From the NCBI GenBank assembly GCA_043228905.1, contig JBHGNT010000018.1:12958001-13022000 (forward strand): a stretch of DNA of 64,000 bases. The letters run 5' to 3'. The position numbers and the translations under genes were made by a program. Of the stretch, positions 3,806-58,287 are shown piece after piece; position 1 is the stretch's first letter; each line of letters starts with the position of its first letter. This stretch comes from Azolla caroliniana. Lineage: Eukaryota; Plantae; Polypodiophyta. The notes beneath the pieces were generated by a model. The model made no database searches, was not told the origin of the DNA, and was given only the letters and a program-made list of their open reading frames with translations.

Positions 3806-6507
3806 TATTGGGAGACAGGTCCCTCCGGATGGGAAGGGAGAAGAACAGTGTTGATGAGCAAACCGGATGACGAGTACCTGGCTACGGAGAGCCGGATGGT
3901 GTAGACCCGGTGAGAACCAGATGAGGAGTACCCGGCTACGGAGAGCCGGATGGTGCAGACCCGGTGAGAACCGGATGAGGAGTACCCGGCTACGGAGAGC
4001 CAGATGGTGCAGACCTGGTGAGAACCGGATGAGGAGTACCCGGATACAGAGAGCCGAATGGTGCAGACCCGGTGAGAACCGGATGAGGAGTACCCGGCTA
4101 CGGAGAGCCGGATGGTGCAGACCCGGTGAGAACCGGATGAAGAGTACCCGGCTACGGAGAGCCGGATGGTGCAGACCCGGTGAGAACCGGATGAGGAGTA
4201 CCCGGCTATGGAGAGCCGGATGGTGCAGACCCGGTGAGAACCGGATGAGGAGTACCCGGCTACGGAGAGCCGGATGGTGCAGACCCGGTGAGGAGTGCTC
4301 ACTGGATAAAGAGACATATTCGTAAATATGTTTCTGAGAGTCCATCATGGCTATATTTGTAAATAGCCGAAAATTCATATTAGTATAAATATGACTTAGG
4401 GAAAACTTTTAGAGATGTAGTTGTTGTCATTCTTGTTGGTGCAAGAGATCAGAGCGCGTAACTGTGTATAGAGAGAGAGAAAGAGAGGAAGAGGTCGTTG
4501 CCTCTGTTGTAACCGCCGCCTGTGGCGAAGATAGAAAGCTCGAGGTTGTTGCCTCGGTGCTTTATTGTTGTACACTGTAACATAGTGATAGTTTGCAGCC
4601 TGTGGGCTGCTGTGGTTTTTCCCTAGTTTGGGTTTTCCACGTAAACATCCTGTGTACTCTTCTCTTCACTGTGTCGTGCATTCATTCCTGTTTTTTTGTG
4701 TATGATTCTAAGCTCGGTTGTGGCCGAGTGCTGCGCATAGGGGACGTTTAGTTCTTGTCAAGTGGTATCAGAGCAAGGCAACACAGAAAATGGATGACTC
4801 GTTGGGAGGCATGTTCAAGCTCACCAGCTCCAACTATTCGGTATGGAAGTCGAAGATGAGGGACATGCTCGTGGTTAAAGATCTTTGGTTGCCGGTTCAG
4901 TTTAAGGACAAGAGACCGGACAAAATTAACGCCACGATATGGGAGGTGATGCACATGAAGACAATGGCTTACAGACGGTGCTTCATCGATATGAGCCTAT
5001 ACAACAACTTCAATGAAGAGAGCAAGGCTCATGAGCTCTGGGAGAAGATCGACATTATGTTTCAGAACAAAAATGCTGTTAACTAGGTTTCGGTATTCCG
5101 GAAGCTAGTAAGACTCCGGTACCAAGATGGCTCTAGCATGGCGGAGCACATGAATGCCTTCCAGGGGCTGATCCACTAGGCAACATCATTGGAAGTACCT
5201 CTCGCCGATGAGGTACTAGTGCTACTCCTACTCGGTTCCCTCCCGGATAGTTGGGAGACGTTGGTTGTCACTTTGGGCAATGCTGGGCCGGAAGGAAAAC
5301 GGTTATCCCTAGCAAGAGTGAAGTCGAGCTTGCTAGATGAGGAGGCAAGTTGGAAAGATAAGGATACGAGCTCCGACTCCAAAGCGCTCCTTACCGAATC
5401 GGAACGCGAAAGACATATAAACCGTAGTCCCCAGAACCGGGAGAAGTTGGGGACACAGTCAAAGTCAAGGGGGAGGCCTGCTTGCTTCTATTGCGGCAAG
5501 CTAGGACAATTCCAAAAGAACTGTCGGCATTTCCGAAAAGACAAGGAAACCGACGGTACCGATTTGAAGCGGACCCCGGACCGGAACGGTAAAGATCGGA
5601 GGGGGCCGGACCGGAAGGGAATGACGGCAATCGCCGCAAGTGAAGAAGAGTTGATGCTCATCACCGAGGAGAGTGAGATAAACCTTGCCGGCGACGAGAT
5701 GACCTGGGTGGTAGACTCTAGAGCGTCGTTCCACCTTACCCCGGACCGGAAGTGCTTCTCATCCTACTCAGCCGGTGATCACGGCTATGTCTGGATGGGG
5801 AATGAAGGTACATGCCGAATTGTCGGCATAGGAGACGTGTGGCTGACAACACCAACCGGATGCAAGTTGTTGCTGAAGGATGTCCGACACGTTCCGGAGG
5901 TTCGTCTGAACCTGATATCAGCCAGTCAGCTACATGATGAAGGCTACATGGGTACCATCCGGAACGGTGTTATGAAGTTCAGCAAAGGGAGCCTGATTGT
6001 GGCTCGGGCCCGGAAGGTAAACACGTTGTACCTGATGAATGCATGGTTATGTCCGAAGGAAGTGAACGTGGCATCCGACAGTGCCGGTGAGCTGTGGCAC
6101 AAAAGGTTGTGTCACATGAGCGAGAAGGGGATGAAGAGGCTTGTAGACAACAACCTCATTCCAGTGAAGAACGTGCACTTGGAGAAGTGCATTGATTGTC
6201 TGGCCGGCAAGCAAAACCGGACCTCCTTCCGACCAAGGCCACCGATGAGACGTAATGCTCCACTGGAGTTGGTGCATACTGATGTATGTCAAGTGGCTAC
6301 AAAGTCACATGCCGGATCTCAGTACTTCGTGACGTCATAGATGACCACAACCGGAAGCTGTGGGCCACACCGTTGAAGACGAAGGATCAGGTGCTATCTG
6401 TCTTCAAAGAGCTCCACGCGAGAGTGGAAAGAGAAACCAGACGGAAGCTGAAGGCGGTTTGAGCAGATAACGGAGGTGAATACTGGGGGTAGTTCGAGGA
6501 GTACTGT
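3806..6507 (+). mobile_element. Ty1/copia element, family A (Tork/Tnt1-like), 5' half
   Basis: LTR 3806-4760; PBS TGGTATCAGAGC (tRNA-iMet) 4763-4774; gag from 4790; CFYCGKLGQFQKNC; protease WVVDSRASFH; LWHKRLCHMSEKG; integrase HTDVC. Ends abruptly within integrase. Confidence 0.92.
3861..4292 (+). repeat. 54-bp tandem repeat, about 8 copies, in U3 of the copia A LTR
   Basis: Unit AACCGGATGAGGAGTACCCGGCTACGGAGAGCCGGATGGTGCAGACCCGGTGAG; visible as 18-aa periodicity in the overlapping ORFs. Confidence 0.95.
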
Positions 6508-12143: not shown

Positions 12144-13540
12144 CCATCTCCTTTAGCAACTGCTCCACTGTGGTTGCATCGATTCCATTCTTGGTCGTAG
12201 TCTCCTGAGCCCATGGTTGATGGTCTTCCAATCCGGATCTTGGTTTCGGAATTGGTTGTGAAACCCTCTTTTCTTCACTACCAAGCCATTGCCCCCTCTT
12301 TGTGTATCACGTAACGATGTCCTGCATGTTTTCCCATGTATTGGTGAGGCCACTCTCAGTAGTGGTGTCCTCTAGAACATTCCAAGATCTTTCCGGTCCC
12401 GGATATCCACGGCTCGTAAGAACATGATCACTTTGTCCGATGCGAGGATATTTTGATCTCTCGCAGACAACCTCCCAAACTGACTTTCGAATGCCGAAAA
12501 CAAATTGAGGACCTTCAACCCCTTGTCTAGCGTTTCCACCCAATCTTCGAATCCCCTCCGTGTTGCCTTGGGAGAGTCCTCGATGGCAAATGTGGTCGTA
12601 TCCCATGGATACTCCCTTGAAGCTCGTCCATAGCCACCCGATTGAAGAATGTCAACTACAATCCTTCCGATATTCCGCACTGTAGCATTTCCACCTTGTA
12701 ATCTGCAAATATCGTGACACATCCTTCCTGTTCAATTGCCCGTTACCTTGCACGAGCCACTCTACTACCGTCGCAATCTCCGACATCGCGCGTTGTTCTT
12801 GTAGCATGCGCTCGAACATCGTTATCATGTTGTTAACCTCTTGTTGATTTTCCATCTCCTTGCCACCCGGTTTCACATCAAGTTCACCACATGTGTCGGG
12901 CCTTTCGCTCCGGATCATTTCCGTGAGTCGGGTGGGAACCGCTGGGGTTTTTGACTAGCAAAAAGAAGAATATGAGATAAGGTTAGTTATGAATATATTG
13001 CAAGATGAAGATATGAAACTCGTGAATCCCACGAGTATAGTGTATTAATTGATACTTAGATTGTAAGAGAGAAATAGATGGCAAAATCATGAATCCCACG
13101 AATATTTTATATTATTCCACCCTTATAAAAAATCAACAACCCCTATACATCTTTCTCTCTTCCTTATATAGAGATGGAAGAGTCTAAGTTTATCACATGC
13201 AAGCATCATGCTTTTTCTAACTTTAGTTTTCATGCACACTACATGTGCATGATTATCTTTCTATCACATCTTTTCTTTTAACTCGAGTGTGTATGTATGA
13301 ATAACTTTTTCTATCATGCTTATCTAGAATATTTACATGGGATAAAGTTTAGTATAACTTTAAAACTCATAATATGCTAATACAGTGGTAAGACTTAAAA
13401 TTGTTAACATGGAGGTACAAGGTTCAAATCTTGCCCTATGCATGTAACATAATTATTGTAGTATTTCTCCTATTTCTTTATACTTGGTCAATTGGGTAGT
13501 CCACACATATTTTACGTAGTGTACAAAGTACACCACAACA
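12144..13540 (-). mobile_element. Phygy-like copy E: 5' LTR (12894-13540), PBS and N-terminal gag
   Basis: gag MENQQEVNNMITMFERMLQEQ nearly matches ORF 51207; decayed Trp PBS; LTR homologous to 50463-51167. Confidence 0.9.
13378..13442 (+). promoter_or_regulatory. tRNA-derived A-box/B-box cassette in LTR, antisense to the element
   Basis: TAATACAGTGG at 13378 and GGTTCAAATC at 13421; TGTTAA at the anticodon-loop position. Confidence 0.6.
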
Positions 13541-13618: not shown

Positions 13619-16600
13619 TGTCATAGACAGGATGCCACATGGAACGGTGGGGGTTGAACCCATAACCTTCTGGTCTTATTGGGCAACCTTACCAATTGAG
13701 CTGCATTCATCCATGCGTTATTGTATTGTGTAAGACTCAACTTATTTCATTATAAATTAATCACTAGAACTTTCAAGAACCTTCTAGATAATGCATCTTC
13801 ATGCACTCTTTAGAAATCTTCTAGCTTTCATGCATACCTCGACATTCTTGTATAAATACTAGGGTGCACCTTGATTACAATCAAGGTGAACAACACCAGT
13901 TACAAAAGCATATACAATTCTTGTTTATTTGTCTATCCTCTCTCTTGCTTGTCTCTTGTCTATGCTCTCTCTCCCACTATCTCTTAATATTGTGCCTCGT
14001 CTACTTGTCCTTGACAATCTTGTGACCTTGCTCATGCTCTCGCTCTCTCTTAGTACTTAGCATCATTCCACCCGTTCGTGACCATTTGTTCACCTTCCCA
14101 TTTTCTAAGGCTCAACATGTCGAATCTTACTGAGAGAATAAATCACCTCATGGAAGCCATGCATCAACTTCAACTTGAGAATGACAACCTTCGGGAATCA
14201 TTACGGAAGCCTCAAGTTGGAACACCGATGGAACTCGAAGAAAAAAACAACTCTCCTCCTACATCAACAAATATTCTACCTATAGAGCCTGGTTCCTCAT
14301 CTATGCTTTCTCCGACTCCTTCCCATCCCACTACAAGTTTGGAGCCCAATATTAGTTTACCTGACAAGTTCAATGGCACGAGGAAGCACTTCCGAGGGTT
14401 CATAAATCAAATCAGGCTTATTATCCAACTACAGCCTCAACGGTATGCGGATGATTTTCGTCAAGTTGGTCTCATAGGGACCCTTTCTATCTGGAGTTAC
14501 ACAAGCCTAGTTTGCACTGCTAGTCGAAACTTCATCACCACTTCTACAAAATTTTCCTACCTTTCTGGCAGAGTTTGAGGCAACATATGGGGATATGGAC
14601 CGACGCCAAATTTCCATCACCAAACTCTATTCATTGCATCAAGGTATGCATCCAGAATCTGTTTATGCCTCTGAATTTAGACAATTAGCATGTGATGTTC
14701 AGTGGGATGGCCAAGCTCTCCGCGACCATTTTCGTTGGGACCTTCGAAGCGAGATTAAAAATTTACTACTCAACTTTCCGGAGCCTACGTCATTGTCGCA
14801 AGCCATCACGCAAGCAATTAGTTGTGACAATCAGTTGTTTGAGCCTCGTCAAGAGGAATGAGCAACTTCAAGGTGGAAACCCTCTTCGAGATATTCTCCA
14901 TCATCATCGTACAATGACCTCGTGCCGATGGAAATTGATCGAGCTCGCGCCACGCCACTCACCGAGGGTGAACAGAGGTATTGTTGAACCAATGGACTAT
15001 GTTTATATTGTGGTGCATCCACCCATCTCATTCGTTTTTGCCCAATCAAGAATAATCAATGAAAAATATCTACAAACAATACGACAAGACGGCCCCAACA
15101 ATAGGAAAACGATGGTGTCCAACTACAGTAGGAGCCATGTGGTTGGACAATCCGCATTCGTGTCGCTCCCATAGTTCAGCTACATCGACAGAAGATTTCT
15201 CCTTTCCGGTAAGCATCAATTTCAAGTCGATTTCAATTAGATCCTTAGCACTTCTAGATTCCAGGGCAACAATGTGTTTTATGGACGAAAGGTTCGTTCG
15301 TAAACACAAATTCCTGGTTGTCTGATTGTCCAAGACAATCCCAGTGGAACCTATTGATGGCCACATGCTTTCTTCGGGATTAGTCACTGAAGCCACTGTC
15401 CCACTTATCTTACAGCTCGGGGACCACCAGGAGGCCTTAACGTTTTATGTCATCACTTCACCACGACATCCGGTCATCCTCAGTTTGTCTTGGCTAAAGG
15501 CACAGAATCCACTTGTTGATTGACACAATCACTCGATTACTTTCTCCCAAACCAGCTCAGAGGTGCAAGCAATATCTCATGTTGTTGCAGGAGCTCACCC
15601 TCCCATTAATGCAGGATTCAGCTCCAAGGCGGATGCCCACATCCCAATCACAACAAGGAAAATAGTGCATAGTGCCTCGTCGAACTATCCAATGAAGACA
15701 ACTACTGACTCACTACTATCCAAGTATGAAGACTTCAAGGACGTATTTCAGAAAAATAATGATGATCACTTGCTTGAGCATCGACACTACGACTGTCCGA
15801 TCGATCTGCAAGAAGTTGCTAGTCCTCCCTTTGGCCCAATTTATGGGTTTTCGGAACCAGAACTCTAGGCACTCCGAACGTATCTCAACGAGAACCTTGA
15901 AAAGGGTTTTATTCAACCCTCAAAATCACCAGCAAGAGCTCCTATTTTGTTTGTGAAAAAGAAAGATGGATCCTTACGCCTCTGCGTTGACTATCGGGGT
16001 CTAAACAAGATTACTGTTCGCAACCGCTACCCATTGCCTCTCATCCCAAAGTTGTTGGATTGACTCCGGACTGGGAAGATCTTCTCCAAGATGGACCTAC
16101 GGAGACCATACAAGTTGGTACGGATAAAACCTGGAGATGAATGGAAAACTGCCTTTAGAACGCGCTACGGACATTTCGAGTATAAGGTAATGCCTTTCGG
16201 CCTCACTAATGCTCCTGCCGTATTTCAACATATGATGAATGACACATTCCGAGAACATCTAGATCACTTTGTTGTGATCTATCTAGATGATATCTTGGTC
16301 TTCTCTTCAAACATCAAGGTACATACTCGACATGTCAGGTTAGTCCTTGCCAAACTTCGTGAGCAGGAACTCTATGCTAAAAGTGAAAAATGTGAATTTG
16401 ATCGTACTTCTGTACAATTTCTTGGGTATGTCATTTCGACACAGGGAATCACAATGGACACACGGAAAGTCAAGACTATCCAAGAGTGAGCCGTCCCAAC
16501 TCGGGTACGAGATGTGCAATCATTCCTTGGTTTTGCCAATTTTTATCGTCGCTCCATCAAAGGATTCTCAGTGATCGCACAACCTCTCATTGCTCTTACC

Positions 16601-19096
16601 CGCAAGGATGCTACTTTCGAATGGACAACAGCTGCCCAAAAGGCGTACGACTTGCTGAAACAAGGCTTTATTATGGCACCGTCCTTTTACATCCTGACCC
16701 AACTAAGCCTTTTCAAGTTGAAACGGATGCTTCTGATTTTGCCATTGGGGTGATCCTCTCCCAGCTAGATGAGGTCGGTGTGCTTCACCCGGTGGCTTAC
16801 TACTCCCACAAATTCACGGCCCTAGAAATCAACTACCCCATATACGACAAGGATCTTCTCGTCATTATTGCTGCTTTTGAAGAATGGAGACCCTATTTAG
16901 CCGGGGCGCAACACCGTATCCAAGTGATTACCGATCACAAAAATCTAATATACTTTTCTACCACACGAACCTTAAATCTTAGACAGGCACGATGGTCGAC
17001 CTTCTTGGTAGACTATGATTTTGAGATAATCTTTTGACTCGGTGTAGAACACACAAAAAGCGATGTCTTATCTTGTCGGTCTGAGTTCAAGCTCACTCCA
17101 GCGGATGAAGCCTATGTTCAGCAGCCCTAGAGTTTGTTAAAGCCTTACCAATTCTACAACTTCGCGACTTGCTTGCTCTAGGCAAATAGCTGAAGCCACT
17201 ACGACTGACAAGTTCACCACAAAGGTCAAGGAAAGTATCACAAACCCCTCCCATGAACCCAAAAGACTTGATTTAGCTCGTTTTACTATTCAAGATAATC
17301 TTTTGTTTCGAGATAATCTTTTGTATGTCCCAAAAGGTCCTTGTCGGACAAGGGTGCTTCACGAGTGTCACGATGATCCACTTGTTGGTCATTTTGGTGT
17401 TGGGAAAACATTGGAGTTGATATCTCGGGGATATTGGTGGCCACAACCATGGAAATTGGTCAAAGAGTTCGTTAAGTCATGTGACGTTTGTACTCGCTCT
17501 AAAGCATCTCATCATCAACCATATGGTCTCCTTCGCCCTCTCCCAATTCCCAAACAGCCTTGGGCCTCTCTTTCCAAGGATTTCATCACTGACCTCCCCT
17601 TCGTTGGTGGTTATGATTCGGTATTCTTCATGGTCGATCGCTTCACCAAGATGACTCATTTTGCTCCATGTGCCAAAACCATTACCAGAGAGGAGACAGT
17701 CGAATTGTATTTTAAAAATGTGGTTCGACTACATGGACTACCGAACGATATCACTTCTGATTGAGGACCACAATTTGTTTCCAATTTCTGGTGGCGCCTT
17801 CTGCAAACCTTCGGTTATACTGTGAATCTATCTTCTTGTTATCATCCGCAAACCAATGGAAAAACGGAGCGGGTTAACCAAATCTTGGAACAATACTTGC
17901 GGTGCTCTCTTAGTTACCAACAAAACAACTTGGGTTGACCTTCTCCCACTTGCCGAGTTCGCCTACAACAACTCTCTGCATGCATCTATGGGAGTTACTC
18001 CATCTTTCGCCAACTATGGTCTCCACCCCCGCTTCAACATTTCTCTTCCCTTTGACTCTGTCAATCCTTCTGTGGAGGACCAGGCACGTCTCTTGGAGGA
18101 TGTACATTGCGATCTTTCCTTGGAGCTCAACCTCGCAGACGAACACTACAAGGAGCAAGCTGACCATCATCGCTTAGATGCTCCCCAGTTTGAGGTAGGA
18201 GACATTGTTTGGCTTCTCCGTCGCAATATTGCCACCACTTGTCCTGGTCCGAAGCTTGATTACAAGAAGTTAAGCCCTTTCCGAATCACTGAGAAAATTG
18301 GTTCCATGGTTGTCCGCTTAGAGCTACCATCCCACTTTCGTATTCATAATGTATTCCATGTCTCCCTTCTATAACCTTGCCATATATCTGAAATCCCCGG
18401 TCAACACCCATCTCCTCCACCACCAATCCAACTCTCAACCGAAGAAGAATTTGAGGTCAACCAAATTCTCGACTCTTGTCTCTTCCAACGCCAACTTCAA
18501 TACCTTGTCCTCTAGAAAGGGTACCCAATCTCCGAAACAACATGGGAGGCAGCACATAATCTCAAGTATGCCCAGGACATAGTTCAAGCATTTCATGAAT
18601 TTTATCCACAAAAACCGGCTACGGGTCCAAGGAGCGGCCTTAGAGGGAGGATATATTAGTTCTGGTCTTATTGGGAAACCTTACCAATTGAGCTACATCC
18701 ATCTATGCATTATTGTATTGTATAAGGCTCAACTTATTTCATTATAGATTGATCACTAGAACTTTCAAAAACCTTCTAGAGAATGCATCTTCATGCACTC
18801 TCTAGAAGTTTCCATGCACTCTCTAGAAGTCTTCTAGCTTTCATGCATACCTCGACATTCTTGTACAAATATTGGGGCGCACCTTGATTACAATCAAGGT
18901 GAACAACACCAGTTACGAAAGCATATACAATTCTTGTTTATTTTTCTATCCTCTCTCTTGTTGGTCTCTTGTCTATGCTCTCTCTCCCGCTATCTCTTAA
19001 TATTGAGCCTCCTCTACTTGTCCTTGACAATCTTGTGATCTTGATTATGGTCTCGCTCCCTCTTAGTACTTAGCCTCATTCTACCCGTTCGTGATA
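13619..19096 (+). mobile_element. Full-length degenerate chromovirus, Tcn1-like (Tf1/sushi group)
   Basis: TSD GTTGG at 13614-13618 and 19097-19101; LTRs 13619-~14084 and ~18655-19096; PPT AGAGGGAGGA; gag PDKFNG; protease ALLDSRAT; [13 protein letters not shown] and YLDD; [10 protein letters not shown]; integrase; chromodomain EEFEVNQILDS...QYLVL*KGY...TWE at about 18445-18600. Confidence 0.93.
13637..13712 (-). promoter_or_regulatory. tRNA-like sequence at the start of the chromovirus 5' LTR, antisense
   Basis: Minus strand GGATGAATGCAGCTCAATTGGTAAG...CCAATAAG...AGGTTATGGGTTCAACCCCCACCGTTCCA; the 3' LTR keeps TAGCTCAATTGG but lacks the B-box half. Confidence 0.7.
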
Positions 19097-27206: not shown

Positions 27207-27909
27207 TGTTGGGAGACAGGTCCCTCCGGATGGGAAGGGAGAAGAACAGTGCCGATGAACAATCTCGGCCGAGGCCGAAACCGGATGAGTAGTACCCGGC
27301 TACGGAGAGTCGGATGGTGCAGACCCGGTATGAACCGGATGAGTAGTACCCGGCTACGGAGAGCCGGATGGTGCTGACCCGATATGAACTGGATGAGGAG
27401 TACCCGGCTACGGAGAGCCGGATGGTGCAGACCCGGTATGAACCGGATGAAGAGACATATTCGTAAATATGTTTCTGAGAGTCCATCGAGGCTATATTTG
27501 TAAATAGCCGAAAAGTCATATTAGTATAAATATGACTTAGGGCAAACTTTTAATTGTGGGTTGTTGTTGTCATTCCTGTTTTGCACGAGATTTGAGCGTG
27601 TAACAGTGTACAGAGAGAGAGAGAGAGAGAGAAAGAGGTCGTTGCCTCTATTGTAACCGCAGCCTGTGGCGAAGATCTGTGAGCACGAAGTCGTTGCCTC
27701 AGTGAACTCACTATTGTACATTCTTACATAGTGACAGTTTGCAACCTGTGGGTTGCCGTGGTTTTTTTTCCCTAGTTTGGGGTTTTCCACGTAAACCTCC
27801 TGTGTATCTTCCTCTTCTTTGTGTCGTGTTTTATTTCCCATTTTCTGTGTATCATTCTAAGCTCGATTGTGGCCGAGCGTTGTGCATTAGGAACGACCAG
27901 TTCCCGTCA
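27207..27909 (+). mobile_element. Solo LTR, copia family A, about 3 copies of the 54-bp unit
   Basis: TGTTGGG...CCCGTCA termini; TSD CGATT at 27202-27206 and 27910-27914; homologous to 3806-4760. Confidence 0.92.
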
Positions 27910-35890: not shown

Positions 35891-36304
35891 TGTCATGAAT
35901 AGTCCTAAAACATAGAGAGAATTAGTACTAGAGAAGGGAAGTACTATTAGTACTAAGAGGATGGACTGCGTAAGACTCACGAGAGAGAGATAGTGAAGGC
36001 GAGAGAGAGAGAGAGAGAGAGAGGATGATGATAACAGATGATATATTATGTGAAGAGTAAGTATAAAATAGTTATGAGGCTTAAGACTAGCGTTGAACCA
36101 ATTTGGTTCGAAATAATGCCTTGTGCCTCTTTTTATAGTGTTCTCAAGAATACTCTTGAAGCTTCTAGAATGTTCCAGAGAAATCTAGAATATACAATAA
36201 TTTTCTATAGTAAAACTTGAATGAAAATAATAGATAATGTAATGGTCAAGAGCTCGACCTATATAACATAAAGTTATGGGTTCGAGTCTTGCCATATCAT
36301 GACA
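35891..36304 (-). mobile_element. Solo LTR, probably chromovirus type
   Basis: Perfect 8-bp terminal inverted repeat TGTCATGA...TCATGACA; near-TSD CCTTG/CCTTA; TCTAGA-rich U3 and TATAAAA as in the 13619 LTR. Confidence 0.75.
36235..36298 (+). promoter_or_regulatory. tRNA-derived A-box/B-box cassette in the solo LTR
   Basis: TAATGTAATGG at 36235 and GGTTCGAGTC at 36279. Confidence 0.6.
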
Positions 36305-38250: not shown

Positions 38251-38388
38251 CTAGTATGCCCAAGGTTGGATAAAAAGGAGTAATGATGAGACACTTTCAA
38301 AGAATATGAATAACATATATATAATGGGAAGGTACTATTGTGGTAACATGTATAATGTGATGCATTGGATAGATTCATGTATATATAC

Positions 38389-39649
38389 CTTTCCATGTTT
38401 GTTGCATGGCTTGTAGTTTCCCAAGGACGGTCATGTTCCTTGGGGCATTCCATTGGGCATTAAGGATGCCCATGTACTCTTCATCCCCTTCATTCCCATA
38501 CCGTCTATAGTAGCTTCCTTGTAGAGCCCAATAGGACCAATCCAAGTCCAAACTAGCTATGAAAGCAAACAAGCAATTGATGTATCTATTGCTAGCTTTA
38601 TTACCTCCCCTTTGGTCAACGCCAAACTCACTTATGAAGAGAGGGGCAACGAAGGAAGAAGACGTATTTGATGAGGGCGAGAGCGAGGACAGGGAGGGGG
38701 AGGAAGCCACCATGAAAGCACCGGAGGCGGTGATAGTAGAGGTGGTAATGGCACAAACTTGGTTGAGATTACCTTGGGCGAAGTTAACCCCATAAGAGGA
38801 GGCATACCAATGCATCTCATAGACAAGCTTGTGCTGGGCGGTGCTAACATTAATGTACAGGAGGTGGTCTTCAGAGAATGAAGACAGGAAATGGAGGTCT
38901 GTATCATTATTGAGGCCAGCGATGAAGATGAGAAGATTAGGGTTAGCTGTGGAGACGACGCTGGCACCCATGGTCATGAATCGGTGCCAATCAGAAGGGT
39001 TCTGTTTAGGTCCCCGTAGCTCATTCCTAAGGCTTATACCGGCAAGATTGGGGACGTGAAGAGCCATGGCTCTGAGACCATCCAGCCATTCCTGGACGGC
39101 GAATCCAGGGTCACCCCAGAAGCCCTCCACATCGTTCTTGGCGCAGCACCACTGGCCTTGGCTCACGTGGTTGTCCGCGATGACGTACAGGCCCGCACGT
39201 GCCATGGACGCCACCGCCGCCTTGAAGGCATCGGGCAACGTGAGGTTCACAAGCGCTGGGTTGTGGATGTGTATCCCCCGCAGCGCCCTGCTCAGATTCA
39301 GTGCCTTGAACCTCTGCGACACCGTCGTGTTCCACCCCGCGCTGCGCGTGAGCATGTGCGTCGCCCACGTCAGCCGCACGCAGTTGAACCCCATGCCTCT
39401 CGTGCCCAGCGCCAGCCTCGCCAGCGGCTGCCTGTCCAAACCCTCCGCCACCATCGCCTCCAGGTGAGCCGCCCAATTCACGCACGCCAACTTCACGCGC
39501 GCCCCGTCCGACTCCCGTACCACCCATCTCGACGACTCCACCGACAAGTATCGCGTGTCCACGTGCCCACATTGCCCTACTACACCCATGCAAACAATCA
39601 CCACCACCACAACATAGCACCACCAATATGCCCAACTTCTAAATTCCAT
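38389..39649 (-). CDS. GH5 glycoside hydrolase exon 1 (plant GH5_11-like, secreted); spliced product about 617 aa, alternative ATG at 39691
   Basis: Hydrophobic signal peptide; RVKLACVNW, GFNCVRLTW, DNHVS..WCC, acid/base SLRNELRG, nucleophile LFISEFG, WSYWALQGSYY; donor AG|GTATAT at 38388; 138-bp phase-1 intron; TTTATAAA at 39704-39711 favours the second ATG. Confidence 0.92.
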
Positions 39650-42172
39650 TATCCTCCTCCTCCTCCTCCTCTCACACCATTGTTTGCTCATGCTCCCACA
39701 TAGTTTATAAATTTGGGCCCCTCTTACTTTACTTTGTGGACTTCATTCAATCATTGATTTTATTATGTTGTTGTCTCCACACTTTATCATTCATTGTGAG
39801 CGTGTGTTCTTTTGGGGGATAAGTCCACACACACACACACACACATGGAAGGAAGGAAGTTACGTAGGGTCATCATCGTGATGCTCCTTTTTGTTCGAAG
39901 CATTGAAAAGCGGATGTACTGTATATGCGTAGAAGCGGTTGATAACGTGCTTTTTCGGTGGTGGTTGCTTGGTCGGTTCCATCCCACTTGACTTGGGGTC
40001 TTTCTAAAGTTTATGTGGATGCGTGTAGGCTCAATTTCACTTTGCAAACTTGTACTCTCTCTCTCTCTCTTCTTACTTTGAAGCCACTCACGAGGCATTT
40101 TCTTTTAAAGTTACTACACATTTAGGCATCACATTCTTTGTCCTCAAGGCACACCGCCACCAGCAACAAGAATGAGCTTAGGAGACGAGGTAGACAACGC
40201 AGCTTTGTTTGCGTTAAGATTTCTAGTAACTTGGCTCTAAATAAGTATAAATAATCATTTAATTTGAATTACTCCATTGTTTTTATCCTCCAATAGCTTC
40301 AATTTTGTTTTCTTGTCTTTTCTTTTTATGTCATTCACATTATTGGTTTTTTTTTTTCTCCCAAAAACATTCACATTATTGTTCATTACTCGTTTTATTT
40401 GTTTGCTGATTTGCTTAGTTGATGTGGCTAATAGAAATAAAAGAGGCACCAAAATATTTTAGTTTATGTCTCTAATACAAATAAGAGAGGCACAAGAATA
40501 GAAATAGAAAGGGCACACAAAAAATAGAGAAATCTGGGAAGGAAATGGGATGAAACGAACACACATCTCAAACTTTTAGAGTTTCTAGGAGATAGTTAAA
40601 GAAGTATATGTTGCATGCATGTAGATCAAAACGAGGTTGGATTAGGATAAATACTTACATTGTAACAATTGTTGTGGTGAAACTTGTAACATTTATGGTG
40701 GTCAAACTATTATTATATTCTAACATAGCCCACACAATTTACATGCTAACTTAATTTATATTTGTATTTGCATTAAGGAGACATTATTTCTTTTTTGTGG
40801 ATATACAAACATATATGTTGCCAATTGTTTAAGTGCTTGCTTGCCTTTGGACAACCAAGTCATCTACAATTTCCACCAAAAAAACTTTGACAAATATACA
40901 ACTCACACGTTTGCATGATTCCATGGTTTTCTTTTACCCAAGAGATCCATGAAAGTAGAATACTTCATTGAAAGAAAGTGGCTTTAATGGATCTGTTTTT
41001 AACGACACAAGGATTCAAAACAATAGCTAGAAACTTGTGCTACCAAATAGTAGTGCTACAAAATACAATGAGTGATAGATGAGAATTGATGAAATATAGG
41101 ATATATTATTTATAGAAGCTAGGAGACAAGCCATGTCACCCTTATGGAAAGTAGGAGACAAGTAACATATGTTTCACACCGATTGAAATGATTTAACACT
41201 TGAATGGATTGAAACATTTTTATGGCATGTAAAACACGCTTGAAAATTAATTTTACATGTCACATTCTTTTTTAATTCTAGTTACTGTGTCGTTTTCCCT
41301 AGGTTGGCCAAATGTTTCCCCATATAATTAGTGGTGACTAGATAGTTTTGAAGTTGTAGTTAAACTAGTGACAAGTAATCGTCATCCCCCTCCTAATGCC
41401 AAGTAATACAGTTCCTAAACAAAGCGTGTCATCGATTCATAATGCCAAATAGATATGTTGGATCACTTTAGAATACAAATGGTAGAAATCTTGCTTCCTC
41501 GAATTTGTCATGATGAACTATTCTTCAGGGATATCTAGAACTACCTTCGTAAAATCTGATTTATCTTGTCTTGAAATATCCATTTTCTCAATATATGACC
41601 CCTTCCTTAATTCATGTCAAGTTATTATCTCAACTTTTGCTTTAGAGTCAAGAGGACCGCTTTTCTTTTCTTTTCAAAGATTATCTTCAATAGTATTAAG
41701 GAAAAATCACCCGAAGGTTACAACTTGAGCTTGTCTGCCTAGAAGCTTACAACTTTTTATGTACAATGATGTACAGTAATCCTAAGACCAAAGATAGGAC
41801 TTTGTAGAAGGTGTTGGAATTTATTGATGCACACTACCATGATTTACTGATATTCAAGAAAGGGTCCATGGAAGTCGATAGTGCCATTGAGGCCCTTGAT
41901 TGACTCTGTAAACAGGGGCAACATTTTCCATATGTAAAGAAGAGGATCTCTATTATTTTATCCGTGACTAGCTATTCATCCATATACATGATAAACAAGA
42001 TTAGGTTTCAATGTTTTTGTTGGTTATGTACTTGTGGGAATCCCCATTATCACATCTAATTCTCTTTAACCCCACAAATGAGTAAACATTATTTTACCAT
42101 TGGAAAGAGAGTTTTCTCTTCTTCAATGGACAAACCATCTCCTCATTTAGTTTGGAAACCCAATAGGTTCTC

Positions 42173-46257: not shown

Positions 46258-47210
46258 TGTCAAGGAATTACTCGTGTGTTAGCAAAATGAAGCGGGACCA
46301 CCGGGGTCCTGGACCGGAGGGATTCGAAGTTTGTACTAGCTTTAGCGAGAAAGTATTTAACATAGATAGAGAGAGATTGAGCGACAAAGATAATTCTAAG
46401 ACAGATTGAGACAGAGAGAGAGATTAAACCCTTGACTTCAATTTTGAGAAACAAGATACATAACGAATAAGATAACTACATATTATTATTATTTTTTGAT
46501 TCAGTACATAGCTTGCTTGATTAATTGATTGATGATCCTTTTCTTTTTCCTCCACTCTTTTATAGATGCCCCCATGCAGATGATGCATGTAAGGGTGCAA
46601 GACATGCATACAATGCATGTAATGCATGCGATGCATGTTTGCCATGTGGCGGTCATGCATTACATGTGATGCATGATAAACATGTCATTCATTCAAGCTC
46701 TCATGTATGAGAATTTACATATGAAAAATCATAATGATGAAAATACAACTTTTTAAGAAATGACTTGGCTTTGTGGTAAGTCAATTGTTTTATGTAAGAT
46801 TGTCTCTACTTGTGGGAGAGTTAGCTGGCCGAAATCAGTCAAAAAGTTGAAACAAGAGTCGGTTGGCCGAAATCGATCAGAAAGTTGAAACAAGAGTCAG
46901 TTGGCCAAAATCGGTCAGAAAGCTGAAATAACAGTTGGTTGGCCGAAATCGACCGAAAAAGGTGAAACAAGAGTTGGTTGGCCGAAATCGGTCAGAAAGC
47001 CGAAACAAAAGTTGGTTGGCCGAAATTGACTGAAAAGCTGAAACGGGTTTAGGTCAAACAAATATACACATATACATATACACATAGTCATATGTATATG
47101 TAAGATAAGTTGGTATATATATAGAGAGAGTCCTATTAGCTGCATATATATGTGGGATAACTCACTAAGAAAAAACAGTGAGAGAAGCGTGAAAGTGAAC
47201 CCTTCTCGGT
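46258..47210 (-). mobile_element. LTR-like segment whose end resembles the Phygy-like LTR end
   Basis: Terminus TGTCA at 46258; GCGGGACCACCGGGGTCCTGGAC resembles the reverse complement of 50-72; CATG-rich core. Confidence 0.5.
46823..47044 (+). repeat. 38-bp tandem repeat, about 6 copies
   Basis: Unit GGTTGGCCGAAATCGGTCAGAAAGTTGAAACAAGAGTC. Confidence 0.9.
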
Positions 47211-50240: not shown

Positions 50241-50564
50241 CTCAGGAACTTGATGTACGCAATCCACTTAAGCAACGCCAGGTCTGGAGTCGTGCATCCG
50301 AAAACCATACCATGGATTGGTAGGCAGTCCGTCTTGATTATCACCTCTGTCCCGATCAAGTAGTCTTTATCGGCGTTGACTGCTGAAACAATACCCTAGT
50401 GTTCGCGTTAAACCTCGGCGTATCCTCCCTGCCACTCGTTCAACACCTTCGCACTAAACCGGTGTCGTAGTGTATTCCACACACTACGTGAAAACCATAA
50501 AATAATATATCCGAATTTAGATACATATAAATAAATAAATAATATATCAAAAGAATTTATCACG

Positions 50565-50629
50565 TGCATAGGGCAAGATTCGAACCATGCACCTCCACAT
50601 AGATAAATCCCAACTTTACCATTGTAATA
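50565..50629 (-). promoter_or_regulatory. tRNA-derived A-box/B-box cassette in the 5' LTR (repeated at 56945-57009)
   Basis: Minus strand TATTACAATGG from 50629, GGTTCGAATC from 50586, TTTT at 50549-50552. Confidence 0.6.
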
Positions 50630-51206
50630 ACTTATCTTTAGTGTTATAAATATAGATTTAATACGTATAAGACCTTTATTTACACATACCTTTATTAAAA
50701 GGTAAAAATCATGTATTCTTTAGAGTGTGAATATTTTATTTACACGTGACATTAAAAGTGACTCATGCACATCTAGCGTGCACGAGCCCTATATTTAGGA
50801 AATGACAAAACATCACATGCACATTTAGTGTGCATGGACACTTTAGGTGAAAAAGCATGAAGCCATGCTTAGCCTCTTCCATCTTTATATAAGGAGGAGA
50901 AAAATATGTATATGGTTGTTAATTAATATAGAAGAATTGATCAATCTAATATATTCGTGGGATTCACGAATTTTGCCATCTAAATTACTCTTATAATCTA
51001 AATATTGTTTTAATTACACTAAACTCGTGGGATTCACGAGATTGCTATCTTACTTCTCTTTCCACTATTCATAACTAGCCTTAAGTTGTATTCCTCTTCC
51101 TCCTAGTCCAAAACCTCGGCGGTTCCCACCCGACTCACGCAACGATCCGGAGCCGAAGGGCTCGACACAGTTGGTGAACCCGACGTGAAGACCGGGTGGC
51201 AAGGAG

Positions 51207-53254
51207 ATGGAAAATCAACCGGAGGCTAGCAACATGATGATGATGTTCGAGCGCATGCTACAAGAACAACGCGCGATGTCGGAGATAGCGGCATCAGTGG
51301 AGCGGCTCGTGCAACGAAACGGGCAATTCAACGGGAAAGACGTGTCGCGGTATCTTCGGGACTACAAGGCGGAGATGCTACGGTGCGGAATATCGGAAGG
51401 ACTGCAAGTGATGTCCTTCAACCGGGTGGCGACCGACGGGCTTCAAGCAAGCATCCATGGGCTACGACAACAAAATCCGACATGGGAGGCGTTTGAAGTA
51501 GAGCTAAAGAGGACGTTCGCCATCGAGGATTCCTCCAAGGCGACGCGAAGGGGATTCGAAGATTGGGTGGAGACGCCGGACAAGGGATTGAAGGTCGTTG
51601 ATGTGTTTTCGGCATTCGAAAGCCGGTTCGGGAGGTTGTCCGCGAGAGATCAAGCTATCCTTGTACCGGACAAGGTGATCATGTTCTTGCGAGCCGTGGA
51701 CGTCCGGGACCGGAAAGATCTCGGAGTACTCTTGGAGGACACGACCACGGAGAGCGGCCTCACCGAAACATGGGAAAGAGTGCGGGATATTGTCGCGCGA
51801 TACACGAAGAGGGGGCAATGGCTTGCCGACGAGGAAAAGAGGGTTTCGGAACCGATTCCGAAACCGAGAACCGGATTGGAAGACCATCAACCGAGGGCTC
51901 GAGAGGCTACAACCGAGAAAGGGATTGATGCATCTACGGTGGAGCAACTATTGAAGGAGATGGAGAATCTGAAGATCGCAATGGTGAAGAAGTCGGACGA
52001 TCGCCCCACAAGCTCCAAGTATATGGACCGACGGTGCATATGGTGCGATAGCGCCGAACACGATCGGAGGGATTGCGACGAGCATAAGGAGGCGCTACGG
52101 CGGGATCTCATCTACTACGAGGGAAACCGGATTCATTCGATGGACTCTTGGAAGCCACTCCGACCGAACTTCCGGAAAGGCGGCATGAAGAAGGTGCTCG
52201 AGGAGGAATTGGCGGCAAGAAGCAACTATGCGACAACCGCGGGAATATGTGTCGGGGAGTCATCGAGAGAAAAGACGTCTTTTTGGCCGGAAGTTCTAGA
52301 AAACACCGAGAAAACCGACTCCAACGAGATCCGAAGCACCGCGGAAGGCGTCCGGGAAGCTACGGGATGGGAGTGCCCTGTCGACAAGAATAGCGTATAC
52401 GCCCTGTGTCAATTGCATAAGGTGTATGTGGACGAGAAACGACGACGCACGGAGGATGCGGCCGGGCCATCGAAGATACCGGAAAGTTGGAACTCCGGAG
52501 GTAAGGGAAAAGAAAAGGCGACTCCGGCATTCAAGCTCGCCTCGGACATAGAACAACAAACCGACTTGAAAAGAGTGTTCGAGGAAAGAATCTTGGATAG
52601 CCGGGTAGATTTCTCGCTTCGGGAGCTACTCGGAATAGCAAAGAAGGAGTTCCACGATCTTCTCGTGGATCTCGTGAAGCGAAAAAGACAAAGTACGGAG
52701 GAAAATGCTCCAAGGGTGAATGCGAACACCGTTTTAATGAACGACACCGAAGCGGAGGACGAAATTCCGAACTCCCACTATACAAGGCCACATTGGGCAC
52801 GCGCGACGCGACTACGGAGACTCCGGTCCGAATCGGCAACATCAAAGAACCCGTGCTAGCATTGATTGATCACGGATCGGAGATCAACTTGATGTCCAAG
52901 GAGTTCTACCGGAAGGAGAAGTGGCCTATTAACACCAACCATGGATGGAAGATTCGGGCGGCCACCAAAGCAACGGAAGATCTATTTGCGGCTTGTCCGG
53001 ATGTGACGGTGAAGATCGGGGATGTCGAGATCGACCAAAATTTCTTCGTGCAAGATGAGGTTTCACATTCCGTCATCCTCGGCCAACCCTTTATCACGGC
53101 ATCACGGATGGAGACGAAGGTGCTCGATAGCGGTGCGGCTTTTGCGCGAATTCGGAGCCAAAACAGTGGGAAATCCGTCCAATTCCTAACGGTGCCGGCA
53201 AATCACAAAAGGAACAAGAGGGAACTCTTGTCCCAAGTGAGAATGGATTTTTAA
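51207..53254 (+). pseudogene. gag-protease of the young element, one frameshift near 52805
   Basis: ORFs 51207..52859 and 52793..53254; CIWCDSAEHDRRDC; ALIDHGSEINLM; GCGAC duplication breaks HWARATTETPV. Confidence 0.9.
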
Positions 53255-56200
53255 AGCGGACTGTTGCGGAGTGGGGAAGTGATAGTCCGAGAAGCCCTGA
53301 TACCCCACACAGGAAGAAAACTCTCGGAGCAAAACATGTACGAATCGGTCCGGATGGGGCATCTACGTACACGACCGTAACCAGAGGATTGAAGAAAGGA
53401 TACCGACAAGTGGAGGATAAGTTGCGGTCGGCATCAATAATAAAAGAAGATGAAGAAATCGTGGGGATAGTCGAGGAAGTGTTCTATGGGAGCACGCTAC
53501 AACGACTTGAAGAGCTTGCGGAAGATAAAAGCCAAGGGAACCGGGTAGTCCCGGTGGAATCGGTCGAGATGTACGAGATCATTGCGAAAATGGAGCCGGA
53601 TACGCTCCGTAAAGAAGAAGCAATGGTAAGTACGAAATACAAGACCGTGGAGAAGAAGGTGAAACCGGCCGCGGGACCACTACCCGACGATAGCGAACAA
53701 AAGAGGAAAGAAGTCTCGGGAGACCCGACACTTCGGAAGACCGTGGATATCGGACATGCCTTCACGGATGAGACCCGGAAGAAACTTCGGATCGATGGAG
53801 GTGGGTTCCTATTACAAAAAGAAGAAGAACGGTTTCGCGAGATGTTGGAGCAACACGGCAAAGCATTTGCATTTACATCAAGGGAGATAGGGTGCGTCGA
53901 TCCGAGAATAGTGGAGCCGATGGTGATCTTCACGATTGACCATGTACCGTGGAACCTGAAGCCGATTCCGGTGCCACGAGCGCATATTCCAAAAGTCATT
54001 GACTTGCTCAAGGAGAAGGTGGCGATGGGGATTCTAGAGCCATCAACTGCTCCGTACTCAAATCGATGGTTTACGGTTCCGAAGAAGAATGGGTCACTCC
54101 GATTTATCCAAGACTTGCAACCGGTGAATAAGGTCACGATCCAGAACTTGGGAGTTGGTCCGATAGTGGACGAATTTGCGGAAGCTTTTGCCGGTCGTGC
54201 GATATACTCCATCGGAGACCTATACTCGGGGTATGACCAATCCAACTAGCCGTGGAGAGCCGAGACATCACAACCATGCGAACACCGATAGGATTAGTCC
54301 GAATGTGCACACTACCACAAGGAGCGACAAACTCGGTTGCTCATATGATGAACGCGATGAACAAGGTGCTTCGAGACTGCATTCCGGAGATAACGATGCC
54401 GTTCCTCGATGACATTCCGATGAAAGGATGCGCGGTAGAAGAAAAAGATGAGACTATGGATGATCGGGGATGCCGAAAGTTCGTGGTCGACCATATTCAT
54501 GATTGCGAGAAAGTGTTGCGAAAGCTAGAAGATGTGCACCTAACACTTTCCGGGGAGAAATCGGCATTCGGGCAAGAAGAAATATTGGTGGTCGGGCATC
54601 TATGTGGGCCCTACGGCTGAAGACCGTCACCAACAAAGATCGATGCGATTCAAGCTATGGAGGAAGTATGCGAGTCAACATCCGAAGTCCGAAGGTTTCT
54701 CGGTGCATGTGCATTCTATCACATATGGATTCCGCACTATGCACATATAGCGGACCCGCTCTACCACTTGTTGCGGAAAGGTAAGAAATTCGAATGGAAA
54801 CCGGAACACACCAAAGCCATGAAGAAATTGAAGAAGACACTTCAGAGGGCGGAAGCACTTAAGAAGCCGAGCTATGACCGACCGATCATAGTAACGGTTG
54901 ATACAAGTCCAACCGGTATCGGGTGGGTCATCAATCAAGCCGACTCGGATGGTTCGCGGTATCCGATCCGATTCGGAGCAAAGGTTCTCAATGAAAGGCA
55001 ACGTGGATATGCACAAGTCAAAAGAGAACTGTGGGGAGTCGTGTCGGCGATAAAATCGGATCGGAATTATTTGATCGGAGCCGAAGTGGTGATCGAGACG
55101 GATTGTCTTCCGATACTCGGGATGATGCGGTGTTGTAAGATACCAGATGTAGCTATGCTAAGGTGGGTTGCATATGTCAAGTCGTTTAATCCGGAGGTTC
55201 AACACATCTCGGGGAAAGAAAACGCGGTAGCGGATATGTTATCAAGGGCTCGGTTCGGAGACGACATAACCGAATCGGATAATGAAGAATTTTCCGAAGA
55301 CTACTTCGCGTCGGAGCACATATGCCGAGTGAACGTAATCCGAGAATTCCGGGAAGAAGAATACGAGGGAGAAAGCTTGATGATCGGAAAGATGTTACAA
55401 GAGGCCGAGGATTCAACAAACGATAAAGGAAGAAGAGCCGAGATCCGAAGGAAGAAGAGGCAAGTCCAAAAGTTCTTCTTGGAAAACGGATTAATATGGA
55501 GGGCGCCGAAAAGACCGGATGGTATACCACTTCGAGTAGTCGGGACAAAAGAGCAACGAAACCGGATAATGTCCGAGTTTCACGAATCCGATTGGGCTGA
55601 ACACCGAGGAACATGGGCAACATTTGTGAAGATCAAGCAAAAATATTGGTGGAAGAAAATGTACAAAGATGTCGCGGAGTTCACGGAAAGCTGCGAGAAA
55701 TGTCAAGTCTACTCCGGGGTTCGACATCGAGATGAGTTACATCCGACATTCTCACCGACAATCAACTTCAAGTGGATGGTTGATATAGTGGCCATGCCGA
55801 CCGGGATCGGACAAAAGAAATACTTGGTATTAGCTCGGGAAGATCTCACGAATCAAGTAGAAGGTCGAGCGCTTCAGAGGAAAACGTGTTCCGCGGTATG
55901 CCAATTTCTTTTGGAGGAAGTATTTTGCAGGTACGGGTGCGTAGGACAAGTGATTGCAGACCGGGGAGAACTCGACTCGGACAAAGCTAGGGGATTCTTC
56001 GCCAAACACGGAGTTCGGTTATCGCTGACAACGGCATACAATCCGGAGGCCAACGGGAAAATCGAACGAGGACATAGTCCGATCGTAAAAGCACTTGCGA
56101 AGGCATGCGATGGAAAGGTGAAGGACTGGCCACAGATGCTTCCGTATGCACTATGGGCGGATCGGCCGACGCATAGCTCCATAACCGGTTACATGCCGGC

Positions 56201-56885
56201 AAAACTCATGACCGGACAAGCACCGGTAATGCCGATGGAAACCGCGATCGCGACATGGACAGTGCTACCGTGGAAGGAAGAGATGAGCCGGGAAGAACTA
56301 CTAGCGGTCCGGATACGACAACTAGAGGGAAGACCGGCAGACATAGCGGAAGCAATACGCCGACAACAAGAAGCACGATTAAGGAACAAAAGCCGGTTCG
56401 ACACAAAGCACCGACTGCGACCGAGGAGGATTGAAGAAGGAGACTGGGTGATCGTCTATGACAGTAGTTTGGACCATCAACATACAACGATGCGGAAATT
56501 CGCGAAAAGGTGGTTCGGGCCATACGAGGTTCGGAAAGTCTTCGACAACGGAACGTACCGACTGTCCGAGTTAGATGGAACAATACTACGAGTGCCTATA
56601 GCCGGGAAGCGGGTGAAGATTTTCAAGAAGCGGACCGACGACAAACCCTATGTGATCCAAGCCAAGGCCGACTATGAGGAGCAATCACACGAAGACCACG
56701 GGGATGCGGGAAGCGAAGAACGTGAATTACAACTCATAGTCGACATAAGGGGAGAATCGGAGGAAGCTTTGGGTGAAGACGGATATGGGGAATCGAGAAC
56801 TTTGGCACATACCGGAGGATGTGCGGGTTCGGAGGGGGCGAGTGTCGTAGTGTATTCCACACACTACGTGAAAACCATAAAATAA
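53245..56885 (+). pseudogene. pol (RT-RH-INT with GPY motif, no chromodomain) of the young element
   Basis: -1 frame open from the GGATTTT site; 1-bp loss near 54241; TGA at 54618; FLDD; VDTSPTGIG; NPEANGKIERGH; WFGPY. Confidence 0.92.
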
Positions 56886-58287
56886 TATATCCGAATTTAG
56901 ATACATATAAATAAATAAATAATATATCAAAAGAATTTATCACGTGCATAGGGCAAGATTCGAACCATGCACCTCCACGTAGATAAATCCCAACTTTACC
57001 ATTGTAATAACTTATCTTTAGTGTTATAAATATAGATTTAATACGTATAAGACCTTTATTTACACATACCTTTATTAAAAGGTAAAAATCATGTATTCTT
57101 TAGAGTGTGAATATTTTATTTACACGTGACATTAAAAGTGACTCATGCACATCTAGCGTGCACGAGCCCTATATTTAGGAAATGACAAAACATCACATGC
57201 ACATTTAGTGTGCATGGACACTTTAGGTGAAAAAGCATGAAGCCATGCTTAGCCTCTTCCATCTTTATATAAGGAGGAGAAAAATATGTATATGGTTGTT
57301 GATTAATATAGAAGAATTGATCAATCTAATATATTCGTGGGATTCACGAATTTTGCCATCTAAATTACTCTTATAATCTAAATATTGTTTTAATTACACT
57401 AAACTCGTGGGATTCACGAGATTGCTATCTTACTTCTCTTTCCACTATTCATAACTAGCCTTAAGTTGTATTCCTCTTCCTCCTAGTCCAAAACCTCGGC
57501 GGTTCCCACCCGACTCACGCAACGATCCGGAGCCGAAGGGCTCGACACCGGATGGGGAACCATGTGCCATCCTCTTCTTCTGGATTAATCACCCACCCGA
57601 TTCCGGTTGGACTCGTATCCATTGTTATGTAAATTGGAGGGTCTGCCTTGTATACCAGTTTCTTGAGAGCTGATGCTGCCGTCAGCCTCTCCTTCAGTCT
57701 TCGGATTGCCTCCGTGTGCTCTGTGCCCCATATGAAGTTCCGACCTTTCTTCAACAACCCATAGAGCGGCTTGGCAAGATGCGCGTAGTGTGGGATCCAA
57801 ATGTCGTAGAAGGCGCATGCTCCCAAGAATCGTCGGATTTCTATGACCAACCTGCAGTGCCCCACTACTAAGATCTCGGATTGTCCAAAAGCCGAATTAT
57901 CCCTAGAGAAGGTAAGTCGAGCGCCCTCAAGCCTCTCCAATATCTTCTCGCAGTCGGAGATGTGGTCCGCGACAAACTTTCCACATTCGTCCAGCTCGAT
58001 CGATTTGGACATCCCTTGATCGGGATGTCGTCCAAGAAAGGCATGGTGACGTCTGGGATGTAGTCCCGCAAAACCTTGTTCATTGCATTCACCATGTGCG
58101 CCACCGAGTTGATCCCTCCTTGCGGTAGTGTACACATCCGAACTAGGCCAAGAGGGGTTCGCATCATCGTGATATCCCTACTCTCCATGGCTAGCTGGAG
58201 CTAGTCATATCTGGAGTACAAGTCGTTGACTGAGTAGATCGACCTCCCTGCAAAGGCCTCTGCAAACTCGTCAATTGTTGGTCCGAT

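Follow-up and report, generated by a model that had tools for sequence, protein, structure and literature searches.

In a 64,000-nt stretch of the Azolla caroliniana genome (contig JBHGNT010000018.1, positions 12,958,001 to 13,022,000; hereafter the window), which is a nest of gypsy and copia retrotransposons, several LTRs carry in their U3 region, antisense to the element, a pair of sequences resembling the A and B boxes of tRNA genes. The locus raises the question of what a tRNA-like promoter unit could do when it is built backwards into the LTR of an element that has a promoter of its own.

tRNA-like cassettes and their carrier elements

The cassettes were scored with an A/B-box matrix trained on 30 unrelated bacterial tRNA genes, which avoids a hand-picked consensus. 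Among the 128,000 strand positions of the window, the five cassette sites occupy ranks 1 to 5. They coincide exactly with the box pairs of the original prediction, including the spacings of 43, 43, 43 and 44 nt, and the tRNA origin it had proposed is supported. The start-to-start distance between the boxes is 43 nt in both LTRs of E1 and in E2 and E3, and 44 nt in E4, as compared with 42–45 nt in the 30 real tRNAs. The cassette is antisense to the element in every LTR scored, element-sense scores being 8.3 at most. Relative to the LTR 5′ ends at 50463, 13540, 13619 and 36304, the starts of the A boxes lie 167, 163, 85 and 70 nt inward, in agreement with the limit of about 170 nt given earlier. 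That the units point outward is true of the 5′ and solo LTRs and not of the 3′ LTRs.

By themselves, the matrix scores are weak evidence and unconvincing. The five sites score 14.5–23.3 bits, the highest being the E3 5′ LTR cassette, whereas the 30 real tRNAs reach 22.5–39.7 bits against their own matrix. Five sites of at least 14 bits are seen versus 2.2 in 60 shuffles, four of at least 16 bits versus 0.95, and the best score was beaten in 2 of the 60 shuffles. No tRNA was called at any cassette site by ARAGORN, with normal and lowered thresholds, or by Rfam. The antisense zone formed by the first 170 nt of the LTRs makes up 0.8% of the strand positions, and three non-allelic LTR types have sites there. 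The copia LTRs contain no comparable site, the four that were scored (with approximate bounds) reaching 7.2 at most.

Four carrier elements, E1 to E4, were delimited (Table 1). E1, a young Phygy-like gypsy element, has LTRs (50463-51167 and 56843-57547) that differ at 2 of 705 nt, and a tRNA PBS from about 51172, the primer of which we take to be tRNA-Trp. Its 4-bp target duplication, CCGG on both sides, fits the NCGN listed for Phygy in REXdb, where these elements are described as lacking a chromodomain, having a tRNA PBS (81% Trp) and measuring 7.7–10 kb; E1 gives no Chromo domain match and, at 7085 bp, is shorter than that range. E3 is identified as Tcn1-like by its chromodomain (18444-18620, with a stop inside; PF00385, E=2.8e-10), by the GTTGG duplication and by an 11-nt self-priming complement (14086-14096 with 13884-13894) about 30 nt behind the TATA-like box. 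Chromodomain and self-priming in place of a tRNA PBS are the marks of Tcn1 chromoviruses, and both Phygy and Tcn1 elements are known from moss and club-moss (PMC6317226). The 3′ LTR of E3 has kept its A box, and about 50 nt including the B box are missing. E4 is a solo LTR with the cassette at its very 5′ end; its U3 behind the cassette resembles that of E3 (score 45 versus 23 in shuffles, 1 in 1000 being as high). Three LTR types are represented among the carriers. E1 and E2 are Phygy-like and E3 is Tcn1-like, while E4 is an unclassified solo LTR with affinity to the E3 type. The three LTR families originally proposed hold as types, but the sites at 50629 and 13378 belong to one family; the cassette does occur in two gypsy clades, the Phygy-like and the Tcn1-like. 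The TATA-like (Pol II) box lies about 90 (E4), 140 (E3) and 250 nt (E1) from the cassette.

Other features of the window were also recorded. E2 and E3 lie head to head, 78 nt apart (13540/13619), with their cassettes facing each other. The coding region of E1 is broken into four frames despite LTRs only 2 nt apart, and its integrase frame (54621-56885) extends 43 nt into the 3′ LTR. Directly 5′ of that LTR, at 56815-56842, a T-loop-like word is linked to the purine tract within a conserved stretch, likewise in loci L010, L020 and L026. Behind its TATA-like box, the Phygy-like LTR contains two copies (50955-50970 and 51025-51040) of a highly conserved 17-bp near-palindrome, with very few changes among copies. 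An intact 455-codon frame of glycoside hydrolase family 5 (38375-39742, minus strand; PF00150, E=8e-12) sits amid the transposon nest, and tandem arrays are found at 3753-4400, 27225-27494 and 46803-47081, comprising 54-bp arrays in two related copia LTR regions and one 38-bp array.

Table 1. Carrier elements and tRNA-derived units, in window coordinates
Feature	Position	Strand	Remarks
E1, young Phygy-like gypsy element	50463..57547	+	7085 bp; gag (DUF4100), PR, RH, IN
E1 5′ LTR tRNA-derived unit	50549..50636	-	in U3; tRNA positions 1-73, short trailer and T4; A/B starts 50629/50586
E1 5′ LTR A box	50618..50629	-	T8, A14, G18, G19 kept; G10 changed in E1 subfamily
E1 5′ LTR B box	50576..50586	-	intact in this copy; CpG at 50581-50582 inside
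E1 5′ LTR T4 run	50549..50552	-	candidate Pol III terminator, 13 nt behind tRNA position 73
E1 3′ LTR tRNA-derived unit	56929..57016	-	points into element; A/B starts 57009/56966
E2 5′ LTR, older Phygy-like	12894..13540	-	about 78% identical to E1 LTR over its 3′ half
E2 LTR tRNA-derived unit	13371..13443	+	A box from 13378, B box from 13421; T4 lost
E3, Tcn1-like chromovirus	13619..19096	+	5478 bp; pol domains; 5-bp TSD GTTGG
E3 5′ LTR tRNA-derived unit	13639..13710	-	A box from 13703, B box from 13660; no T4 before LTR end
E4, solo LTR	35891..36304	-	inverted termini; 5-bp TSD, 4/5 match
E4 tRNA-derived unit	36228..36304	+	A box from 36235, B box from 36279; no T4 before LTR end

Inheritance and conservation across LTR copies

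Phygy-like copies were gathered by means of a U5 motif located 540 nt from the cassette, which gave 45 metagenome loci. Of these, 44 are LTR loci, and they belong to one accession series, probably one campaign, so that they represent many copies and not many studies. Among the full LTRs with both ends, both boxes are found at one place in 12 of 15, the B box is truncated in one and a U3 deletion is present in two; L007 and L026-4322, in which the cassette is deleted, are within the 15 and outside the alignment. Excluded from the counts were L018, which lacks LTR flanks, L037 (68 nt), the E1 3′ LTR, which is a duplicate, and all loci that stop short of the LTR 5′ terminus. The position of the cassette is identical in all 17 aligned Phygy-like LTRs. 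Since it occupies the same place in every copy, the cassette has been inherited with the LTR, and independent SINE insertions, named at the outset as a check on the idea, were rejected; a single ancestral SINE insertion may have been its source. The E1 LTR is present in thousands of contigs in each of four runs, which bear four organism labels.

The other cassettes are known from fewer copies. That of E3 was seen in E3 alone, and that of E4 has a relative in L024 (76% over 74 nt). In these E4-type cassettes (window 36228-36304; L024:906-988), the B box recurs, inverted and imperfect, at tRNA positions 23-33, so that a long hairpin can form on either strand. L002, a related LTR, has another U3 without the cassette: at L002:380-900, Phygy-type U5 and PBS are joined to an unrelated U3 with short repeats, which would be either another subfamily or the result of a nested insertion. 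Scans of viral and prokaryotic sequences yielded 0, 1, 1 and 31 matches; L047 is bacterial, and ARAGORN found a tRNA in none of the 31. Across families, the cassettes compare with scores of 15–42, inside the range of unrelated tRNAs (mean 41.6), so that the three may share one origin or have separate ones. A relic LTR terminus in the Phygy U3, that is, a captured E4-type end, is visible in just 2 of 17 copies and was set aside as a lead only.

Three further tRNA-like sequences were met in the collected loci. At L012:2501-2555 (+) there is another A/B pair, with 44-nt spacing, 15 bits and a T4 just behind it. The pair follows a PPT-like tract by about 40-90 nt, is antisense to an E3-like gag lying downstream, and may represent a fourth LTR type. 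L026:4795-4878 is a degenerate tRNA-Leu(CAA) about 470 nt from the end of a Phygy-like LTR, and L042:616-669 contains a tRNA-like A/B pair.

Within the alignment, the A–B distance is 43 nt in 15 of the 17 LTRs, and this region is the most length-stable block of U3: the length of the 44-nt A–B block is shared by 15 of 17 copies and that of the adjoining B-box block by 12, against 2–7 for the other 12 blocks before U5. Cloverleaf pairing amounts to 48%, which is the control level and is equalled by 197 of 500 shuffles. The cloverleaf is lost, while the boxes and their spacing persist, as had been noticed for the Phygy-like copies together with the divergence of the intervening sequence. Counted as parsimony steps per column over the 17 LTRs, the anticodon arm is the most variable part of the cassette (2.95), followed by the 30 nt upstream (2.47) and the rest of U3 (1.76); the A box (1.64), the B box (1.73) and the variable loop (1.70) change less, positions 63-77, the 15 nt behind the B box, match the boxes in conservation (1.40), and the LTR ends have 1.0–1.2. 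The 16 tRNA-invariant columns show 0.44 transversion steps per column as compared with 0.90 in base-matched U3 (p=0.03, the copies being related to one another), but the difference is not significant when all changes are taken (p=0.16). Greater conservation of the boxes than of the adjacent U3, set at the outset as a check, thus holds for transversions; it is not significant for all changes, and the flank behind the B box is equally conserved. Constraint on the boxes over the neighbouring U3 is moderate.

The same pattern was examined in contigs from three runs, with 376-923 contigs per run. No variant of at least 4% occurs at T8, A14, G18, G19, G53, T54, T55, A58 or C61, versus 12 of 31 variable spacer positions, those near the stretch ends being under-sampled. 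Where the A box varies, position 11 remains a pyrimidine and position 15 a purine. Within the B box, C56 is replaced by T in 24.5, 37.5 and 29.6% of the depth, while the tolerated change at position 57 stays below 4%. A sub-lineage with a broken B box may have been amplified, or the C56T change may have come from local strand-biased deamination. Such deamination was set aside as a sign of antisense transcription, since the rare changes showed no strand bias (Fisher p=0.54 for the cassette). Of 16 copies, 5 retain the CpG of the B box; of the 19 other CpG sites counted, 16 are retained more often. The B box is intact in only 7 of the 17 aligned copies, and G10 is lost in the young E1 subfamily. 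Because the CpG is kept in so few copies, most of them have been unshielded from methylation-type decay. This speaks against the proposal of a shielding insulator for most copies, and protection from methylation is at most confined to the young ones.

Possible functions of the cassette

The best fit to the combination of boxes, spacing and terminator without a cloverleaf is a type-2 Pol III promoter. In 14 of the 17 Phygy-like copies, the distance from tRNA position 73 to the first T4 is 12-13 nt, which lies in the +1 to +25 zone used for the terminators of plant tRNA genes (PMC13437025), although the linker there is T-rich. Of the T4 or longer run expected within 25 nt of a type-2 Pol III gene, the units of E3 and E4 show none inside the LTR. 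We suggest, with a probability of slightly less than one half, that in young copies the inherited tRNA-derived unit, facing away from the LTR promoter, has remained active as a type-2 Pol III promoter. Being antisense, the unit cannot transcribe the element, whose LTR has a separate TATA-like box 90-250 nt beyond the unit.

According to this model, a tRNA gene, or the head of a tRNA-SINE, would have been captured into U3 long ago, once or several times, and then inherited vertically. Binding of TFIIIC to the boxes would position TFIIIB in the interval that separates the unit from the Pol II TATA-like box, and the resulting assembly could keep an open patch or a boundary upstream of the LTR promoter. 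In the Phygy-like family, an antisense Pol III RNA of 85-88 nt is predicted, ending inside U3; the outward RNA considered in the original prediction is unlikely in this family, as the T4 run would end the transcript inside the LTR. Older copies would lose the function of the unit through decay of the B-box CpG. Once assembled, the unit may either help or damp the LTR promoter, and tRNA genes can also repress neighbouring Pol II promoters. In a 3′ LTR, a Pol III complex could obstruct the element's own transcript. A chromatin-shaping role at the LTR promoter is favoured by analogy with yeast, where tDNA and TFIIIC sites form orientation-independent barriers and block Pol II read-through (PMC2040200, PMC4228148). 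A Pol III role is weakened by C56T at 25–37%, by the retained CpG in 5 of 16 and the intact B box in 7 of 17 copies, by the loss of G10 in the E1 subfamily, by the E3 3′ LTR without a B box, by L002 without the unit and by the position of the T4 in a T-rich linker. A bolder version, which we regard as doubtful, is that two distant autonomous gypsy clades each maintain a divergent U3 Pol III gene as a portable TFIIIC boundary or opener; fresh insertions would then be transcribable in heterochromatic nests until the B-box CpG is methylated and decayed, and the module may have crossed clades by U3 exchange.

The main rival explanation, which we consider unlikely, is that an old tRNA or SINE fragment in U3 has been passively inherited, or that parts of it are kept as Pol II enhancer words, TFIIIC binding being gone. 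Such a relic would agree with the frequency of C56T and the heavy decay of the B-box CpG, with the lack of significance for all changes and the equally conserved flank behind the B box, and with matrix scores below those of real tRNAs and the loss from the E3 3′ LTR. It accounts less well for a box-shaped pattern with a variable anticodon arm, for a spacing frozen within an indel-rich U3, for a T4 whose position is fixed across subfamilies up to about 0.3 substitutions per site apart, and for the same position and orientation in two clades.

Less probable still is a docking function, in which a host tRNA would pair through its D and T arms with the 3′ U3 of the genomic RNA, so that the primer is anchored at the 3′ end and initiation or minus-strand transfer is helped. 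The antisense orientation and the U3 position are as needed for it, and the conserved box columns double as D- and T-loop invariants. There are also precedents in the U3 of autonomous LTR elements: the bipartite PBS of Ty3 has its 3′ part in U3, where it base-pairs with the T and D arms (PMC5371799, PMC11381356), the U3-R of HIV-1 is reported to contain a tRNA-Lys3-like sequence complementary to tRNA arms, and Drosophila Gypsy has a second 3′ PBS. However, Ty3 and HIV-1 match their own primer tRNA, which the 3′ part of the cassette does not: the Phygy-like cassette and the 3′ part of the primer (positions 59-73, read from the E1 PBS) agree at 6 of 15 positions, and E3, the carrier of the best cassette, is self-primed without a tRNA PBS. 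Besides, the element already has a long 5′ PBS, and the fixed T4 has no role in docking.

A Pol III hairpin processed to small RNAs is improbable for the cassettes as a whole, and such a role fits E4-type LTRs only. The E4 unit folds into a long hairpin (z -5.7), as does its L024 relative (z -3.5), the Phygy-like copies have an extended T-arm hairpin with 82% pairing, and the units of foamy-virus LTRs likewise have A and B boxes and a T terminator (PMC3993851). On the other hand, the covariation of the T-arm hairpin is not above that of shuffles, 55 of 500 reaching the same level, other U3 windows fold comparably (z down to -4.3), and the E3 unit has z -0.3. Finally, chance likeness of AT-rich LTR sequence to short boxes is largely refuted and retains a negligible share, for although single scores are attained by shuffles and neither Rfam nor ARAGORN gives a match, the top five sites all lie antisense in the proximal U3, a zone of 0.8% of positions, in three LTR types, one orientation and tRNA spacing, and a variable-loop word and terminator are also present.

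Comparison with known systems and biological meaning

Helenus/TRIMp3 (Kojima 2024, PMC10886601) is the nearest known kind; neither these elements nor the docking explanation entered the original prediction. Its LTRs contain tRNA-derived sequence with conserved boxes A and B and no functional cloverleaf, for which a SINE insertion into the LTR has been proposed as the origin, and the cassettes described here share both the tRNA-derived boxes in the LTR and the promoter-only pattern. Helenus elements are, however, non-coding TRIMs of 311-1263 bp, whereas E1 and E3 are protein-coding gypsy elements (5.5-7 kb), each having a TATA-like box of its own; and the tRNA part of Helenus, where its orientation is given in the available text, lies in the sense direction and is considered to drive transcription of the element, whereas the cassette is antisense. 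The sole plant Helenus in the portion of that report available to us is from Selaginella, and the words “moss”, “antisense” and “opposite” are absent from its text. It also remarks, leaving them undescribed, that “not a few LTRs” among the Repbase entries are similar to a portion of a tRNA (PMC10886601), and the cassette-bearing families may sit unremarked in Repbase.

Other Pol III sequences in LTRs are more distant. The Cassandra and Ajax TRIMs, the former from plants, have a Pol III promoter in the LTR, as is proposed here, but it is 5S-derived, the elements are non-autonomous, and the Cassandra promoter drives the element RNA (PMC10886601). The nearest autonomous case is that of the foamy viruses, whose LTRs contain an A/B-box Pol III unit with a T terminator (PMC3993851); those units are experimentally shown miRNA precursors in animal viruses, while the present ones keep a tRNA layout and have a predicted RNA. 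The yeast tDNA and TFIIIC barriers, which supply the mode of action proposed here, are host loci, whereas the cassettes sit in plant LTRs (PMC2040200, PMC4228148). Within the open literature searched, the accessible portions describe no antisense tRNA-derived unit in Phygy or Tcn1 LTRs, and no such cassette is mentioned in the available parts of one Tcn1 paper and one LTR-structure paper. The cassette is a real and family-wide feature of these LTRs, and apparently an undescribed one.

Foamy viruses and non-coding TRIMs already provided examples of Pol III promoters in LTRs, which in the TRIMs serve to transcribe the element. A backwards unit in protein-coding plant retrotransposons would be a new use, because it cannot drive the element. 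If the cassette is a relic, the capture of a tRNA in U3 is still documented, together with a possible sharing of the module between gypsy clades. The cassettes could add many extra TFIIIC sites to host genomes, and the LTRs that carry them would make it possible to test directly whether TFIIIC barriers function in plants and whether an anti-silencing element is carried by the transposons themselves.
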